Part shown: in pieces, positions 2,525 to 53,470 of the stretch
Layout: each line of letters opens with the position of its first letter
Numbering within the stretch: the stretch's first letter is position 1
Assembly: GCA_965227515.1 (NCBI GenBank)
Contig: CBDDFZ010000002.1
Span: 416,001-480,000, forward strand
Direction: 5' to 3'
DNA length: 64,000 bases
Source: Alphaproteobacteria bacterium
Lineage (GTDB): Bacteria; Pseudomonadota; Alphaproteobacteria; CALKHQ01
The notes under the pieces: generated by a model
Seen by the model: only the letters and a program-made list of their open reading frames with translations
The model's database searches: none
Told to the model about the DNA's origin: nothing
Translations under genes and position numbers: made by a program

Positions 2525-3670
2525 TCACCCGGCGAAGATGTCGTTCACCGTCTCGACGATCTCGTCCTCGTTTTCCAGCCACCAGTTCCAGTCCGGGATC
2601 CACAGGCCCTCGACCGCGTCGGCGGTGTTCTCCACGCCGTGCGGCACCAGGTTCTCGTGCACCGCGGCCTCGCTGTGGGTCGGGCGCAGGTAGAACACGC
2701 CGTCGAACTTGGTGATGAACTCCGGATCCAGGCGCCGGTTCAACAACGCCATCGCCAGCCGCTTCTGCATCGGGTCGGAATACCGGCTCAGCGTCTGGGT
2801 CTGGGTCAGGATCGGCTTGTACTGCGACCACATATACGGTGCCACCGGCACGCCGGCCTCCTGCTGCATGTAGACCTCACCGTCCACGTGCACGCCGATG
2901 GTGGCCTCGCCACGCTCGATCAGGGTCGACATATTGCCGGTGAAGTCGGAGATCTTCATCGGCATCGCGCGTTCCATCGCGTCCAGGCCGGCCGCCATGT
3001 CCTGCTGGCTCTCGCCGAAGACGGCGTTGGCGGTCATGAAGAAGGCCATGAACAGCGTGTTGGAGGTGATGTAGGTGGCGCGCTTGTCGGCGTACTGGTC
3101 CTGCCAGAAATCCTCGAACGAGGTCGGCGCCGGGTCGGCCAGGTCGGTGCGGTAGGAATAGCAATAGCGGCCGAACGCCCAGGTGATGCCGACGCCGTTG
3201 TCCAGCGCGAACGGCCACACGCCGCCGGCGTTGGGCACGTTGGCGATCACCTCTTCCTGCGACAGGAAATAGTCGCCCGCGCCCGCGGTCTTGTACATCT
3301 CCGGCAGGTTCCAGTTGGTCGACGCATAGGGCGGGTCTTCCGGCCCGCCGGCGACGAATTTCGGGAACCACGGCCACGTGCTGTCGTATTCGACCGTGCA
3401 GTTGAAGTCGCGCTCGAAGTCGTTGATCAGCAGCTCGCGGATGTTCTCTTCCCAGAAGCCGCCCCACTCGGCGATCGGCAGGGTCGCGCCCTCGGCGTCG
3501 AACACCTCGCCGTCGTAGTGGACGTCCTGGCTCCAGGCGTGGTTGATGTTGAACAGATGCACGCCGGCCGCCGCGGCGCCCGCACCCGCCAGCACATTAC
3601 GACGGCTGACGCCCTTGGTCGTTCCAGGCAGGATCAACCCGCTGTCTCCGATACCTTTCTTTTTGGCCAT
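2525..3670 (-). CDS. ABC transporter substrate-binding protein (PotD/PotF-like), Tat-exported
   Basis: Start trimmed to ATG of MAKKKG; twin-arginine SRRNVL signal; WGG motif; PTSFEDFW; lies in operon with permeases and ATPase. Confidence 0.85.
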   Translation of the reverse strand: MAKKKGIGDSGLILPGTTKGVSRRNVLAGAGAAAAGVHLFNINHAWSQDVHYDGEVFDAEGATLPIAEWGGFWEENIRELLINDFERDFNCTVEYDSTWPWFPKFVAGGPEDPPYASTNWNLPEMYKTAGAGDYFLSQEEVIANVPNAGGVWPFALDNGVGITWAFGRYCYSYRTDLADPAPTSFEDFWQDQYADKRATYITSNTLFMAFFMTANAVFGESQQDMAAGLDAMERAMPMKISDFTGNMSTLIERGEATIGVHVDGEVYMQQEAGVPVAPYMWSQYKPILTQTQTLSRYSDPMQKRLAMALLNRRLDPEFITKFDGVFYLRPTHSEAAVHENLVPHGVENTADAVEGLWIPDWNWWLENEDEIVETVNDIFAG

Positions 3671-45342: not shown

Positions 45343-46740
45343 ATGGAACGGCGGCTGGCAGCCATTCTGGCGGCTGACATGGCCGGCTACAGCCGGCTGA
45401 TGGAGCATGACGAGGCCGGCGTGATCGACCGGCAGAAGGCCCACCGCCGCGAGTTGATCGACCCCGAGATCGCCAACTTCCGCGGCCGTATCGTCAAGAC
45501 CACCGGCGACGGCATGCTGGCCGAGTTCGCCAGCGCGCAGGACGCCGTGCGCTGCGCCATCGAAATCCAGAATGCGATGCCGGCGCGCGAGGACGGCATC
45601 GCCGAAGACCAGCGCATCCGTTTTCGCGTCGGCATCAATGTCGGCGACGTGGTGTTCGACGATGGCGACATTTTTGGCGACTGCGTCAACGTCGCCGCGC
45701 GGCTGGAGGGGCTGGCCGAGCCCGGCGGCGTGTGCGTGTCGAGCGCGGTCCACGCCATGGTGCAGGAGCGGGTGGACGAGCCGTTTCGCAATCTGGGCGC
45801 CCAGCGGGTGAAGAACATCGCCCGCCCGATCCAGGTGTGGCAGTGGACGCCCGAGGCGCGCGCGCACGAGACGGAGGTCGCGCCGGCCGGACGCAACCAG
45901 TCGATCCAGTTCTGCACCGCGCCGGACGGCGTGCAGATCGCCTATGCCAGTGTCGGGTCCGGCCCGCCGATGCTGAAGGCGCCGAACTGGATGAGCCACC
46001 TGGAGTACGAATGGCGCAGCCCGGTGTTCGCGCCGCTGCTGACCGGGGTGGCCGAGAACCGGCGGCTGGTGCGGTTCGACCAGCGCGGCAATGGGCTCTC
46101 CGACTGGAACCCGGAGGAGATCTCCGAGGACGCGATGGCGTCGGACATGGAGACGGTGGCCAACGCGGCGGGGCTGGACCGGTTCGACCTGTTCGCGATC
46201 TCCCAGGGCTGTGCGTTCTCCATCCGCTATGCCGTCGAGCATCCGGAAAAGGTGCGCTCGCTGGTTCTGGTCGGCGGCTATGTGCTGGGCCGGCTGCGTG
46301 GCAATTCGCCCGAGGCCAAGAAGCTGCACGAGGTCTCGAAGGCCATGATCCTGCAGGGCTGGGGCTCGCCAACCCCGGCCTTCCGGCACTTCTTCACCTC
46401 CATGTTCATGCCCGACGCATCGCCGGAACAGGCGAAGAGCTTCGACGAGATGCAGCGGATGTCGGCGAGCCCGGAGACGGCGGCCCGCATCGCCGACATG
46501 AACGCCCTGATCGACGTGCGCGACCTGGCCCGGCAGGTTGCCGTGCCGACCCTGGTGCTGCATTGCAGTGGCGACCAGCGCATCGCGGTGGAGGATGGGC
46601 GCGCGATCGCCGCCCTCATTCCCGGCGCCCGCTTCGTCACCATCGACGGCAACGACCACATCCCGCTGGCCGGCACGCCCGCGCTCGACGACATGCTGCG
46701 CGAGGTGAATGCGTTCCTGGCCGACGTGGACGCGGCCTGA
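45343..46740 (+). CDS. Class III adenylate/guanylate cyclase fused to alpha/beta hydrolase
   Basis: AILAADMAGYS, KTTGDG, RVGINVGD, GDCVNVAARLE; C-terminal FDQRGNGLS, AISQG, GDQR, NDH. Confidence 0.88.
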   Translation: MERRLAAILAADMAGYSRLMEHDEAGVIDRQKAHRRELIDPEIANFRGRIVKTTGDGMLAEFASAQDAVRCAIEIQNAMPAREDGIAEDQRIRFRVGINVGDVVFDDGDIFGDCVNVAARLEGLAEPGGVCVSSAVHAMVQERVDEPFRNLGAQRVKNIARPIQVWQWTPEARAHETEVAPAGRNQSIQFCTAPDGVQIAYASVGSGPPMLKAPNWMSHLEYEWRSPVFAPLLTGVAENRRLVRFDQRGNGLSDWNPEEISEDAMASDMETVANAAGLDRFDLFAISQGCAFSIRYAVEHPEKVRSLVLVGGYVLGRLRGNSPEAKKLHEVSKAMILQGWGSPTPAFRHFFTSMFMPDASPEQAKSFDEMQRMSASPETAARIADMNALIDVRDLARQVAVPTLVLHCSGDQRIAVEDGRAIAALIPGARFVTIDGNDHIPLAGTPALDDMLREVNAFLADVDAA

Positions 46741-46757
46741 CGCCGCCACCGCCCGCC

Positions 46758-47951
46758 GTGGAGCCGGCCGGCATCCACCTGCCCGCGTTCGTCGCCGCGC
46801 GCATTTTCACCACCGCGGTCTTCATGACCTATCCGGCCTGCCTGGCGGTGCTGGAGGAGGCGTGGGGCACGACCTCGACCGAGGCCGGGGTGGTGCAGGG
46901 CGTGTTCACCGGCGCCTTCGCGTTCTCCATGCTGGCGACCTCGATCCTGGCCGACCGGATCGGCGCGGTGCGCATCTACAACGTGGCGACCGTCGCCTGC
47001 GCGCTGACGGCGGTGGCGTTCGCCGTGTTCGCCCGCTCCTATGGCACCGCACTGGTCACCGTGGCGCTGGTGGCGATCGCACAGGGCGCCACCTACACGC
47101 CCTCGCTCTTGATCCCGGCCGCCAACGCCCGCGCCGCCCGCAAGGCGACGGCGGTGGGCTGGGTGCTGGCCGGCATGTCGGGCGGCTACGTCGTCTCCAT
47201 CCTGGTGGCGACGGCGATGCTGAACTGGTTCGACTATCGCTGGGCATTCGCGGCGACGGCGGCGCTGACCTTGCCTGCGATCCCGCTCGGCCTGGTCGCC
47301 ACCCGGCGCGCGGTCGACGCGGCACGCACGCCGGCCACCGACAGGGCGCCGTTCGGCCCGGCGGCGCGGCGCAACGCCCGGCTGCTGACGGTCGGCTATA
47401 TCGGCCATTGCTGGGAGCTGTTCGGTGCCTGGGCCTGGGTGCCGGCGTTCCTGATGACGGCGAGCCTGGCGGCCGGCACGCCATCTGAAGGCAGCATCTC
47501 GTACCTGGAGATCGGGCTGTGGACCGCGCTGGCGCTGCACTTCTCCGGCTTCATCGCGTGCTTCACCGCCGGTTACGCCGCCGACCGGCTGGGCGCGAAA
47601 GCGGTGCTGGTGGCGTTCGCCGCCATCGCGGGCGTGTGCTCGTTCGCATTGGGCTGGCTGGTCGACGCGGGCCTCGTCGCCCTGTTCGCGCTGGTCGCGG
47701 TCTACGGCTTCGCCACCATCGGGGACAGCGCCGTGCTGTCGTCGGCGATGACCGACACCGTGCCCGCCGGACACCTCGGCAAGGTGCTGGGGCTGAGGTC
47801 GGTGCTCGGCATCGGCGCCGGCGCGCTCGCCCCGGTCGGCTTCGGCGCGGTGCTCGACGCCGCCCCCGCCGCCACCGAGTGGGGCTGGGGCTTCGCCCTG
47901 CTCGGCCTGGGCGCACTGGTCGCCGTGGTCTGCGCGGCCAGATTGCGGTGA
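46758..47951 (+). CDS. MFS transporter
   Basis: About 12 TM segments, LADRIG and ADRLG loop motifs, HCWEL; start trimmed to GTG after upstream stop. Confidence 0.85.
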   Translation: MEPAGIHLPAFVAARIFTTAVFMTYPACLAVLEEAWGTTSTEAGVVQGVFTGAFAFSMLATSILADRIGAVRIYNVATVACALTAVAFAVFARSYGTALVTVALVAIAQGATYTPSLLIPAANARAARKATAVGWVLAGMSGGYVVSILVATAMLNWFDYRWAFAATAALTLPAIPLGLVATRRAVDAARTPATDRAPFGPAARRNARLLTVGYIGHCWELFGAWAWVPAFLMTASLAAGTPSEGSISYLEIGLWTALALHFSGFIACFTAGYAADRLGAKAVLVAFAAIAGVCSFALGWLVDAGLVALFALVAVYGFATIGDSAVLSSAMTDTVPAGHLGKVLGLRSVLGIGAGALAPVGFGAVLDAAPAATEWGWGFALLGLGALVAVVCAARLR

Positions 47952-47984
47952 GGGGTTGGTGTGCGGCGGGCCTCGGTCGGGGCT

Positions 47985-48037
47985 GTCGCCGGGGCGGAGC
48001 GCAGCGCAACCCGGGTTCCGTGGCGTTCCATCCGGGC
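47985..48037. repeat. Degenerate GTAG-type REP
   Basis: GGAGCGCAGCGCAACCCGGGTTCCG core shared with 23850..23905. Confidence 0.6.
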
Positions 48038-48081
48038 CGGGCTTGCTGACCCGACCCTCCCCAAGTTGCCGGAGAGGCCTT

Positions 48082-48125
48082 ATGATGGCGACGCTGTCGC
48101 GTGATGATGGCGACGCTGTCGCGTG
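48082..48125. repeat. 22-bp perfect tandem duplication
   Basis: ATGATGGCGACGCTGTCGCGTG x2. Confidence 0.85.
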
Positions 48126-48185
48126 CCGCCGGGCGCGGGCAACGAACCCCGAGATCAGGGGAGAAACAGGGATGGAAGGGTGCCT

Positions 48186-48476
48186 ATGATTCGTCACACA
48201 GTCGTATTCACGCTGAAGCACGCGCCGGGCTCGGAGGCGGAACGGGTCTTCATGGACAAAGCCATGGAGCTCACCGAGATCCCCACCGTGCAGAAGTTCG
48301 AGCAACTGCGCCAGGTCAGCCCGAAGTGCGAATACACCTACGGATTCTCCATGGAATTCGACGACCAGGCAGCCTTCGACCTCTACATGAACCACCCGAT
48401 CCACGTGCGCTTCGTGGAGGACGTGTGGCTGAAGGAAGTGCCGGAATTCCAGGAAATCGACTACGAGTTGATGTGA
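48186..48476 (+). CDS. Dabb (stress-responsive A/B barrel) family protein
   Basis: MIRHTVVF, IPTV, F.D...Y..HP.H..FV, IDY. Confidence 0.85.
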   Translation: MIRHTVVFTLKHAPGSEAERVFMDKAMELTEIPTVQKFEQLRQVSPKCEYTYGFSMEFDDQAAFDLYMNHPIHVRFVEDVWLKEVPEFQEIDYELM

Positions 48477-48908
48477 GGGTTTGCGCCGGACTCCGCGCCG
48501 TTGAGTCGTGGGCCGGAGAGACCACACACTACCCTGCAAGGCGTGAGCGGCGCTGATTGGTACTTGGCTGACAACCGAAGGCAAAGTGCTCAACTGCCCG
48601 CAATATGCATTCTACATGGTCATTGCCACCGTCGTCACAGAGGCCAACCTCTGTTCCGTCGTCACCGCCTAAGAGCGCGACCTCACGGGGATTTAATGCA
48701 CCACTGCCATGGGTTGAACTGCGACAGAATGGATGCTGTTACAGTAGCCCTCGCAATACGGTATTAGTCGGAGCCGGCGTGAGCACGCCCCGACCTGCAG
48801 CTTGGGTGAGGTAGAGGCGAGACTCAGGCTCAGACCAGTTTTGCCCAATTGCACAGAGTGGTATGCTACGACAGCAAGCAACCTAAGTGCTGTTGGTTTC
48901 GCAAAAAT

Positions 48909-49310
48909 GTGATTCGTGAATTGTCAATCTGGGCCTTTTTTTGCTATGATGATGGTCGCAACGACGACCTTTGGCAGCAGTGGTGGAATGCGGCCAGTGT
49001 TACCGACCGTGATCGAGGCGCTCATGACGAAACTTTCGATGTGCTTGAGAGTAGGCCTCTTTGGTCAAATCCACCCGTTAAGAACTTACGGGACGGCTTG
49101 CTTGAAATCAAATTCAAGGGGCGCGTGCAATGGCGGTTTTTGGGATTTTTCCATCCGAAAAGACCTCGGAATGCGTTTACCATTGTTATGACTTGTTACC
49201 ATAAGGAGAATCGATACTATCCAAATGACGCAATTAAAGTAGCGCGTAAAAGGGTTCTCGGTATCGAGAGGAATCCTTTGCTGGTGAGGGCAAGTGTTAG
49301 ACCAACTTAG
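48909..49310 (+). CDS. RelE/HigB (Gp49-like) type II toxin
   Basis: VKNLRDGLLEIKFK..VQWRFLGFF...FTIVM..YHK...AIKVARKR pattern; start uncertain (GTG 48909, ORF open from 48849). Confidence 0.72.
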   Translation: MIRELSIWAFFCYDDGRNDDLWQQWWNAASVTDRDRGAHDETFDVLESRPLWSNPPVKNLRDGLLEIKFKGRVQWRFLGFFHPKRPRNAFTIVMTCYHKENRYYPNDAIKVARKRVLGIERNPLLVRASVRPT

Positions 49311-49950
49311 GTTTTCCAAATTGGATAATAGCCAAGAATACCGATCATCATACGTGGGGTCGCGTGTTCGGTTGGCAATTGCTGCTCAGATACGCGCTTT
49401 GCGGGAACAGTATTCATCTTCGCAAGCCGAATTTGCAAAATTAGTTGATATGAAACAAAGTGTAATTTCTCGCCTCGAGAATCCTGACTATGGTCAAATG
49501 TCGATTCAGACACTCTTGCGCTTGGCTAGCAAGCTTGACATTGCGTTGGTTGTCAAGTTTGCATCATATGAGAAATTCTTTTCTGAGTTGGATATAGATT
49601 TTTTTGAGCCTAGAAATTTGCAGGTAGACAATTTTGCCGCATCGAGAACCGCGCTGAGTGGAAGCAGAACGGTGTTTTCTTTCTCTCATCTCAGAAAGCG
49701 CGAAGCGCAAAGTCGTTGGTCACAAATTCTAGACAGTAACGGGGATCTCGGCCGGATTCGAAATCGGAACTCCAATTACGTATCGAGGCAAATTCGGGTT
49801 CAAAACAGAGGCGACATGATTGATACTATGAGTGTAGGGCGCGGTGCCTTTTTCATTCCTAGACAACAAAGTCAGATACAACATCTCCCTGCTTTATGGC
49901 AGGCGGATGAATTTGGAATTCAAAATAGATCTGTATTGAAGATATTGTAA
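49294..49950 (+). CDS. XRE-family HTH antitoxin with long C-terminal extension
   Basis: QIRALREQ...SQAEFAKLVDMKQSVISRLEN...SIQTLLRLA..LD..L.VKF; start overlaps toxin end. Confidence 0.8.
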   Translation: MLDQLRFSKLDNSQEYRSSYVGSRVRLAIAAQIRALREQYSSSQAEFAKLVDMKQSVISRLENPDYGQMSIQTLLRLASKLDIALVVKFASYEKFFSELDIDFFEPRNLQVDNFAASRTALSGSRTVFSFSHLRKREAQSRWSQILDSNGDLGRIRNRNSNYVSRQIRVQNRGDMIDTMSVGRGAFFIPRQQSQIQHLPALWQADEFGIQNRSVLKIL

Positions 49951-50624
49951 TGAAAGTCATTAGCTACGAGCTAGGCAGGATAATTGTCTTGTTTCCCTTT
50001 GAAGAAATTCGTCCCAATGGAGGTTTGTATGCTCCTCTAGCATTTGAGGCATTTAGAGATCGATATGGCTTTGTTGGGCTTCCGAAGCTCGGACGGACGC
50101 GGGAAGAAGTGGACCGAGAGGGAGTGCGATTCCAGCAGGGGCACATAAATCTTGACGGAAGAGAAATTAGTATTTCTGAGCTGGCCATTTTTGTCGATGG
50201 AGTGGTGATTGATTGCACACAAACAGCTAACTCATTAGTGGTTTGGGATGAGTTGATCTCTTGGGTTGTTGAGGAGTTAGGATTCAAGCCTCCATTCAGT
50301 GATCTCAAGATACACTATAAAAGCACTATAATTGTTCAGTTTGAAAAAAGAATGAATAAAATGATCAATAAGTTTTCATCCTTGTCTAAAATGTACGCAG
50401 ATTTCCTGCAGAAATATTCCCCTCACGAGCGGCAGGAAATTGACATGGTGAGTGTTTCTTTAGGCAGTGATGTTGGGCGTTCAACAGATATCATTAAGCC
50501 ATCTCCCCTCAATATTGAGAGGAGGGCGGGTATCGGATTTGATAAAGAAAGATACTTTTGCGAGGCTTCACTTCCGTCTGAACAGTTGGAAGAGTTGTTA
50601 GTCACAATCGAGAACATGCTTTAG
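49950..50624 (+). CDS. Hypothetical protein, third gene of TA-like operon
   Basis: 224-aa ORF in AT-rich DNA; TAATG overlap with antitoxin stop; globular-looking, acidic, no TM or signal. Confidence 0.75.
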   Translation: MKVISYELGRIIVLFPFEEIRPNGGLYAPLAFEAFRDRYGFVGLPKLGRTREEVDREGVRFQQGHINLDGREISISELAIFVDGVVIDCTQTANSLVVWDELISWVVEELGFKPPFSDLKIHYKSTIIVQFEKRMNKMINKFSSLSKMYADFLQKYSPHERQEIDMVSVSLGSDVGRSTDIIKPSPLNIERRAGIGFDKERYFCEASLPSEQLEELLVTIENML

Positions 50625-50734
50625 TGGCCAACGGAAAGTGACAGTTTGCCAAGCAATCATAGTGGTGGCTACGCACTCCCTTAATACTATGTTATCATTT
50701 TGTCAGGACACAACAAGCGGCGGAGAGGCCACCC

Positions 50735-53332
<2,598 letters not shown>

Positions 53333-53390
53333 CAAAATACCTCTGTCAGCCGGTCGCCCCTCTGCTTTGCACGCGGGGCGACCCGAAGTC

Positions 53391-53470
53391 GGCGCCGGCC
53401 CTCTCCCCCACCCGGCCACCCACACAGGATACTACCGTTGGGCGGCCGGGTGGGGGAGAGGGCTGGTGCC
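53391..53470. repeat. Palindromic element (same family as the livG insert) in clpB leader
   Basis: GCCCTCTCCCCCACCCGGCCACCCA ... TGGGCGGCCGGGTGGGGGAGAGGGC. Confidence 0.8.

Follow-up and report, generated by a model that had tools for sequence, protein, structure and literature searches.

In the 64,000-nucleotide (nt) stretch of alphaproteobacterial DNA analysed here (hereafter, the window), three overlapping genes on the + strand form a compact toxin–antitoxin (TA) locus with an additional third gene. Gene 1 (48909..49310) encodes a HigB-like toxin, gene 2 (49294..49950) an antitoxin of the XRE family with a long C-terminal tail, and gene 3 (49950..50624) an acidic protein of 224 amino acids (aa) from an unnamed family with a predicted TBP-like fold, TBP being the TATA-binding protein. 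We are highly confident that the three genes represent a genuine, conserved and mobile TA-linked module in which the function of the third gene is bound up with the extension of the antitoxin. By analogy with toxin–antitoxin–chaperone (TAC) systems, gene 3 might bind the tail and keep the antitoxin stable, and we consider the chances of this mechanism to be about even. The original prediction had described the locus as a TAC analogue, a reading that is partly supported: the three-gene layout, the tail, the relationship of the toxin to HigB1 of Mycobacterium tuberculosis, and a third protein that is not SecB by sequence and belongs to a new family all speak for it, and the mechanism stands as an analogy with TAC systems.

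The strongest evidence for the module is its conserved gene order. DNA upstream of a gene 3 homologue is readable at fifteen loci (the window, L002, L003, L006–L009, L013–L015, L017, L018, L029, L033, and L034). At all fifteen, in line with the original prediction, the gene 3 homologue lies directly behind a TA pair: it starts between −20 and +5 nt from the stop codon of an antitoxin-like gene, which is itself preceded by a small toxin-like open reading frame (ORF). The loci were collected from genome samples, from scans with one sub-alignment selected by a motif over genome records (five loci), metagenome contigs (thirteen), and viral contigs (one), and from plasmids (one). Two pairs of duplicates (L030 of L007 and L031 of L008) were counted once each, and L014 and L015 are nearly identical (213 of 222 gene 3 residues). 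At L012, the antitoxin and gene 3 are present and the contig ends before the toxin. Six loci (L010, L011, L016, L019, L020, and L023) are uninformative because their sequence starts close to or at the gene 3 homologue, L021 holds an N-terminally truncated copy, and L022 holds the last 60 residues of a homologue only. With the window's genome included, the gene 3 family occurs in two of 401 genomes sampled across the phylum, five of 401 sampled across the class, and two of four from the order. Against this background, it is hardly credible that gene 3 is a passenger, functionally unconnected with the TA pair, given that all fifteen readable loci have it immediately after the antitoxin, in overlapping or nearly abutting frames and next to three pair types, and that the layout recurs across genomes, metagenomes, one viral contig, and one plasmid (where it is decayed).

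The three types of TA pair that precede gene 3 homologues are HigB/XRE, DUF4160/DUF2442, and an unassigned toxin-like gene followed by an XRE gene. Among twelve first genes scanned against Pfam, eight match Gp49, one matches DUF4160, and three have no match at E ≤ 0.01; the first gene of the viral-contig locus L029 gives a weak Gp49 match (E = 0.0025). Among thirteen scanned second genes, eleven match HTH_3 and one matches DUF2442. The third pair type is found at L033 (first gene at 2599–3147, − strand) and L034 (577–1071, + strand), where the first genes are larger (182 and 164 aa, respectively), lack a Pfam match, and precede a different tailed HTH_3 antitoxin and then gene 3. They may represent an undescribed toxin family. 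By eye, their C-terminal strands look RelE-like. At L018 (1426–1834), the toxin N-terminus (MAIWTFRCYD...) and the remainder of the protein lie in different frames, and the corresponding gene of L029 (1918–2337; 81 per cent identical) is intact; the L018 toxin carries either a frameshift or a sequencing error.

Phage and plasmid collections contain hardly any copies of the family. It was found in no phage genome, and four scans of viral contigs yielded one locus (L029), the three other motif sets giving none. One copy, a decayed one, was found on plasmids, and a search with the paralogue described below as the query returned none. The plasmid copy (L005) is on a Bradyrhizobium conjugative plasmid (NZ_CP100605.1, 278043–279237). 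Its tailed helix-turn-helix (HTH) gene is intact, its gene 3 is frameshifted into a 52-aa N-terminal ORF and a remainder in another frame (a hypothetical protein of 170 aa in the annotation), and the position expected for the toxin is taken by an IS701 transposase.

The DUF4160/DUF2442 pair belongs to a second islet (L002), which lies on another contig of the window's own genome. Its gene 3 paralogue is 24 per cent identical to gene 3 (E = 8e-12) and is recovered by the family profile with E = 2.3e-44. The gene order is DUF4160 (E = 2.1e-12), DUF2442 (E = 2.3e-7), and the gene 3 paralogue, which starts 1 nt past the stop codon of the DUF2442 gene. Like the locus in the window, this islet has a low guanine-plus-cytosine (GC) content (0.34–0.48 versus approximately 0.70 in its surroundings). 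Among listed TA systems, a DUF4160/DUF2442 pair appears under the name dhiTA in Dickeya dadantii; L002 shares that type of pair and adds to it both the gene 3 paralogue and an extension of approximately 96 residues, with the DUF2442 domain ending at residue 99 of 195. In a sample of 301 genomes of the class, DUF2442 reading frames range from 45 to 359 aa from stop to stop, a measure that overshoots the true length in GC-rich DNA. The second islet is bracketed by 157-nt direct repeats that are 97 per cent identical (L002 1254–1410 and 3125–3281; contig G000:C1, at approximately 2.16 Mb). Both repeats reproduce the 3' end of a gene for an HlyC-type acyltransferase (Pfam HlyC, E = 6.6e-28), and the islet looks as if it had inserted into the end of that gene and duplicated or restored its target.

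The second line of evidence connects gene 3 to the antitoxin tail. All thirteen aligned partner antitoxins extend 57–127 aa past the folded head, so that the long tail singled out as a feature of the system in the original prediction is present in every partner antitoxin and in more than one TA family. We searched a profile of the antitoxin head alone (A7) against a comparable sample of 401 genomes from the phylum. Strong matches (E = 9e-44 and 5e-41; E ≤ 1e-40) were confined to the two gene 3-carrying genomes, in both cases directly upstream of gene 3. The next matches, at E of approximately 1e-13, are a tail-less 137-aa HigA of a two-gene HigB–HigA locus (L026), which ends right after its HTH domain, and a 79-aa HipB encoded beside HipA; neither locus has gene 3. 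The head-profile sample is small, and it points the same way as the alignments, namely that the tail and gene 3 appear to occur together. The tail is also the most divergent part of related loci. Specifically, L018 and L029 are 81 per cent identical in the toxin, 89 per cent in the antitoxin head, 67 per cent in gene 3, and 42 per cent in the tail (with 23 gapped positions), and L012 and L013 are 88 per cent identical in the antitoxin head, 85 per cent in gene 3, and 63 per cent in the tail.

Gene 2 encodes a protein of 218 aa from a GTG start codon at 49294 to 49950 on the + strand. It overlaps gene 1 by 17 nt and is joined to gene 3 by a TAATG junction, exactly as first described, the figure of 17 nt holding if GTG 49294 is the start. 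Its HTH_3 domain (residues 33–85; 49390..49548, + strand) scores above the Pfam cut-off (34 bits versus 23; E = 2.9e-8) and lies inside an ordered head of approximately residues 10–125. The head profile matches the solved structures of HipB (4z5h_A; E = 2.1e-9), HigA2 (7ewc_A; E = 6.8e-8), and HigA (6af3_B; E = 7.3e-6). In an AlphaFold model built with thirteen homologues, the predicted local distance difference test (pLDDT) score is 75–97 over residues 11–120, the chain is ordered to approximately residue 125, and the score falls below 50 over residues 127–218, which are predicted to form a disordered C-terminal tail (49672..49947, + strand). The HTH domain and the tail given in the original prediction are thus both recovered, but the tail is approximately 92 residues long by AlphaFold rather than the 120 proposed. 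The tail is rich in arginine and serine, and the stretch beyond residue 108 has an isoelectric point (pI) of 11.6 and nine aromatic residues. A word-based search with the tail found no relatives.

A polar-aromatic motif (e.g. L-x-V-x-N-F-A or S-F-D) is located at residues 109–119 of gene 2 (49618–49650). It is retained in eleven of twelve XRE partner antitoxins, approximately 20–30 residues past the HTH domain, and it resembles the polar-aromatic-small sites described for chaperone-addiction (ChAD) elements. It could be where gene 3 or the toxin contacts the antitoxin.

The toxin ORF ends at 49310 on the + strand, and its candidate start codons are TTG 48849 (the longest ORF), GTG 48909, and TTG 48921. 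The true start is probably TTG 48921 or GTG 48909 (giving 129–133 aa), because the aligned homologues begin with M-A-[IV]-W or M-W just before a conserved W-x-F motif. The match of gene 1 to Pfam Gp49 (PF05973), a family of the RelE superfamily, falls slightly below the cut-off (E = 9.4e-5 to 1.3e-4; 22.4–22.8 bits versus 23.9). A profile of twelve first-gene homologues, eleven of which align as one toxin family, matches the solved toxin HigB (6af3_A; E = 1.2e-6) and the TAC toxin HigB1 of M. tuberculosis (7nbu_Y, E = 1.1e-4; 7awk_A, E = 1.4e-4), in each case over approximately 110 of 130 profile positions. This similarity to solved HigB toxins bears out the RelE/HigB-like assignment made from the window alone, and gene 1 probably encodes a HigB-type, ribosome-dependent toxin that cleaves mRNA, as judged from its family.

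Gene 3 runs from an ATG at 49950, which overlaps the gene 2 stop codon, to 50624 on the + strand. It had been presented as a 224-aa protein of no assignable family, and as a third component that is larger than SecB and possibly representative of a new chaperone or sensor family; the lack of an assignment and the new family are both borne out. Its best matches in Pfam (E = 0.081) and PHROG (E = 0.49) are insignificant, NCBIfam and PADLOC give none, a word-based protein search found only the protein itself, and comparisons with the Pfam SecB and TBP models return nothing at E ≤ 1. Similarly, none of 128 aligned family members matches Pfam at E ≤ 0.01, and the family profile finds no solved structure in the Protein Data Bank (PDB) by sequence. 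A HMMER scan of 1.84 billion cluster representatives reveals 755 relatives at E ≤ 1e-3 (277 at E ≤ 1e-10 and 6 at E ≤ 1e-30), counted as clusters at 50 per cent identity. Nearly all of the best 150 are approximately 220 aa long and align end to end. In the ESM Atlas, relatives are found as ‘hypothetical protein’ clusters only, most commonly from Thermodesulfobacteriota and Acidobacteriota, assignments that serve as leads only. No longer, fused forms of the family were found, which is weak evidence; one longer member (276 aa; L017 2462–3292) has approximately 55 extra C-terminal residues compared with the body of approximately 220 aa. In the defence-system library PADLOC-DB 2.0.0, against which the original prediction had suggested the locus be checked, genes 1 and 3 match no model and gene 2 matches only generic HTH models.

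The AlphaFold model of gene 3, built from the family alignment, has a pLDDT of 96.8 and a predicted template modelling (pTM) score of 0.89. Within a single 224-aa chain, it consists of two similar halves, each of the order beta-alpha-beta-beta-beta-alpha; the N- and C-terminal halves of the family share no sequence similarity (hhalign, probability of 0.4 per cent). SecB, by comparison, is a single small domain, unlike this two-repeat topology. In the Foldseek comparison with the PDB that had been proposed for 49950..50624, TBPs rank first (E = 3.8e-4; template modelling scores of 0.42–0.54). An aligner independent of Foldseek places the model (residues 1–224) on TBP 1mp9_B with a Z-score of 9.0 and a root-mean-square deviation of 4.4 over 162 of 189 residues, followed by the McsB kinase domain (Z = 6.7) and the N-domain of archaeal SerRS (Z = 6.5). 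A second structure search returned 38 TBP chains at Z = 8–9.1, as well as McsB and phosphagen kinases at Z = 6.2–7.0 (151–169 residues aligned), and in the library of viral structures (BFVD) gene 3 matches TBPs of giant viruses. SecB is not among the matches listed in the four fold searches, although absence from such lists does not amount to exclusion. We regard the predicted gene 3 structure as a TBP-like architecture, with a moderate match that does not imply common descent with TBP; it is read as architecture and not as homology because best Z-scores of 7–8 are common for models without a structural match.

These fold matches raise two alternatives for the function of gene 3. In the first, gene 3 would be a nucleic-acid-binding accessory whose saddle binds RNA or DNA and either helps the toxin to reach its substrate or joins the antitoxin as a co-repressor. 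TBPs, including those of giant viruses, are its best full-length fold matches, and TBP-like domains are found in proteins that act on nucleic acids: those of RnlA, itself a TA toxin, help to bind RNA, and that of RNase HIII binds the substrate nucleic acid. Gene 3 shares with all three proteins two tandem beta-alpha-beta(3-4)-alpha repeats that form a saddle, aligned over the full length, but it is a standalone protein rather than one fused to a nuclease, as in RnlA and RNase HIII, it lacks sequence similarity to TBP, as evident from the empty Pfam TBP comparison, and nothing points to a part played with DNA or RNA. Its charge also differs. TBP is a basic protein, whereas gene 3 has a pI of 5.17 and the 128 family members a median pI of 5.39 (range 4.76–8.96), an acidity more in keeping with binding to a protein than to DNA. 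A nucleic-acid-binding role would, in addition, leave the long extension of every partner antitoxin unexplained, and we consider it improbable.

In the second alternative, gene 3 would be an enzyme that modifies the tail or another target, with a saddle like that of the catalytic domain in guanidino or protein-arginine kinases. McsB and the phosphagen kinases are second-tier matches over the whole model, the family conserves E-R-R, R, H, S, and D residues, and the tail in the window is rich in arginine and serine. On the other hand, the lack of any Pfam match among the 128 members extends to kinase families, the kinase Z-scores fall within the range of a common arrangement, the gene 3 model has 224 aa versus 231–706 aa for the matched kinase chains, and the tails at other loci are not rich in arginine, with pI values down to 4.7. 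An enzymatic role is therefore quite improbable.

A role as a partner of the antitoxin tail is suggested by comparison with TAC systems, which are, to our knowledge, the only case of chaperone control over a TA pair. The gene order in TAC is higB-higA-higC, and our locus has the same order of toxin, antitoxin, and third gene, co-oriented and tightly packed, as the SecB-dependent systems HigB1-HigA1-SecB(TA) of M. tuberculosis and HigBAC, CmdTAC, and MqsRAC of Escherichia coli. Its HigB-type toxin is related to HigB1. In both cases, the third gene is common to different TA pairs and the antitoxin extension is the most variable part. The locus differs in its third protein, which is not SecB by sequence, has 224 aa, and is predicted to form a two-repeat saddle nearest to TBP. 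In TACs, the third protein has been shown to bind the antitoxin, which depends on it, and phages are sensed; for the locus described here, these three features would be expected by analogy. The two-gene HigBA systems likewise share the toxin-first order with an overlap, and the heads of both proteins match the solved pair 6af3_A and 6af3_B; relative to them, our locus has the additional tail of approximately 92 aa and the third gene, both of which are missing from the tail-less L026.

In TAC systems, a SecB-like chaperone binds the disordered C-terminal ChAD of the antitoxin, which aggregates or is degraded without the chaperone, and removal of the ChAD makes the pair independent of the chaperone. 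The ChAD of HigA from E. coli NT1F31 is reported to span residues 122–218, and the tail of gene 2, at residues 127–218 of 218, occupies nearly the same positions, although in our case it is disordered by prediction only. By analogy, we hypothesize that the ordered XRE head of gene 2 would neutralize gene 1 in the manner of HigA and repress the operon, as expected from its family, and that the disordered tail would make gene 2 dependent on gene 3. With the tail held on the face of the gene 3 beta-sheet, the antitoxin would be shielded from proteolysis or from aggregating. Loss of gene 3, or its diversion (by a protein of a phage, for example), would then lead to decay of the antitoxin and set the toxin free.

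Several observations weigh against this proposed mechanism. No computed result places gene 3 in contact with the tail, and no motif unites the tails of the different pair types, which range in pI from 4.7 to 11.6 and in aromatic residues from 1 to 10. Known chaperones are absent among the listed fold matches of gene 3. The match to TBP is itself moderate (Z = 9.0 versus a typical best Z of 7–8 for unmatched models), and in RnlA and RNase HIII, mentioned above, such TBP-like domains bind nucleic acid. The gene 3 family conserves the charged or polar residues E190-R191-R192, R201, H213, S125, and D174, a set that could also belong to a catalytic site or one that binds a ligand. The survey is biased, as nineteen loci were found via one motif (NRYFCxAP) and all genome samples are from one phylum. 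Finally, a role in phage defence is conjectural, with PADLOC empty for genes 1 and 3 and no defence genes identified beside the islet.

The same conserved residues could form the ligand site of a sensor. In this alternative, gene 3 would be a switch rather than a stabilizer: triggered by binding a phage protein, nucleic acid, or small molecule, it would either work through the tail to set the toxin free or hand the antitoxin over to a protease. The conserved gene order and the tail data fit such a role equally well, and the rapid divergence of gene 3 and the tail between L018 and L029 is as expected of the parts involved in an arms race. In SecB-type TACs, moreover, the third protein itself senses phage, as is reported for the chaperone HigC of E. 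coli HigBAC. By the same token, sensing can neither be separated from chaperoning nor does it exclude it, given that HigC is described as doing both. The single viral-contig locus in four scans and the absence of the family from the phage genomes searched also count against a sensor, and we consider this explanation unlikely. Chaperoning of the tail by gene 3 has, in our estimate, an even chance of being correct.

The three ORFs fill a dip in GC content and make up an islet of 2.2 kb; the AT-rich region as a whole (48250..50750, no strand assigned) lies between a gene encoding a Dabb domain (48123..48476, + strand; Pfam Dabb, E = 2.3e-16) on its left and clpB (50735..53425, − strand; named from its translation) on its right. 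In 500-nt segments within 49000–50749, the GC content is 0.426–0.450, compared with 0.67–0.74 in the flanks, in agreement with the foreign composition noted at the outset; on the left side of the islet, GC values of 0.49–0.62 form a ramp across 48000–49249. There are no tRNA genes in the window and no Rfam matches in 48000–51000, and no direct repeat flanking the islet was found. Scans of the islet region for promoters and terminators are at chance level (four promoters found versus 2.7 expected). The best sigma-70-like match (TTGTCA, 18 nt, TG-TATGAT; 10 of 12 positions), at 48921–48950, coincides with the beginning of the toxin ORF instead of preceding it.

With respect to the assembly, a contig from sequencing run X1 spans 46500–51073 with no differences and bridges both junctions of the islet; this run is possibly the window's own source data and is thus not independent. 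In run X2, which is from another study, a 325-nt contig (depth 2.7) is identical to 49391–49715, a part of gene 2, and the same antitoxin gene is therefore present in a second sample. None of the sequencing runs listed with this DNA is an RNA data set. In a comparison for an empty site, homologues of the Dabb-domain gene and clpB were located on different contigs in three genomes of the same family.

In the literature we found, TACs all use SecB, and no third TAC component that is either non-SecB or TBP-like was encountered; that literature did not extend to the supplementary files of the TAC preprint or the tables of the NetFlax census of TA systems, which might list neighbourhoods of this kind. 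Searches for TACs began from SecB homologues, and NetFlax retained two-gene neighbourhoods only. An unrelated third component with a large family of its own would be a second kind. We tentatively propose, as a possibility that may well prove wrong, that dependence of an antitoxin on a guardian protein evolved a second time without SecB, by way of a TBP-fold family of at least 755 clusters that would be dedicated to the tails of at least three unrelated TA pairs and whose members may also be phage sensors, like the third proteins of HigBAC and CmdTAC. If this is true, the combination of a tail and a guardian would be a general solution rather than a peculiarity of SecB, several hundred clusters of unannotated proteins would gain a function, and a protein made up of a full, two-repeat TBP-like saddle would be added to those of bacteria.

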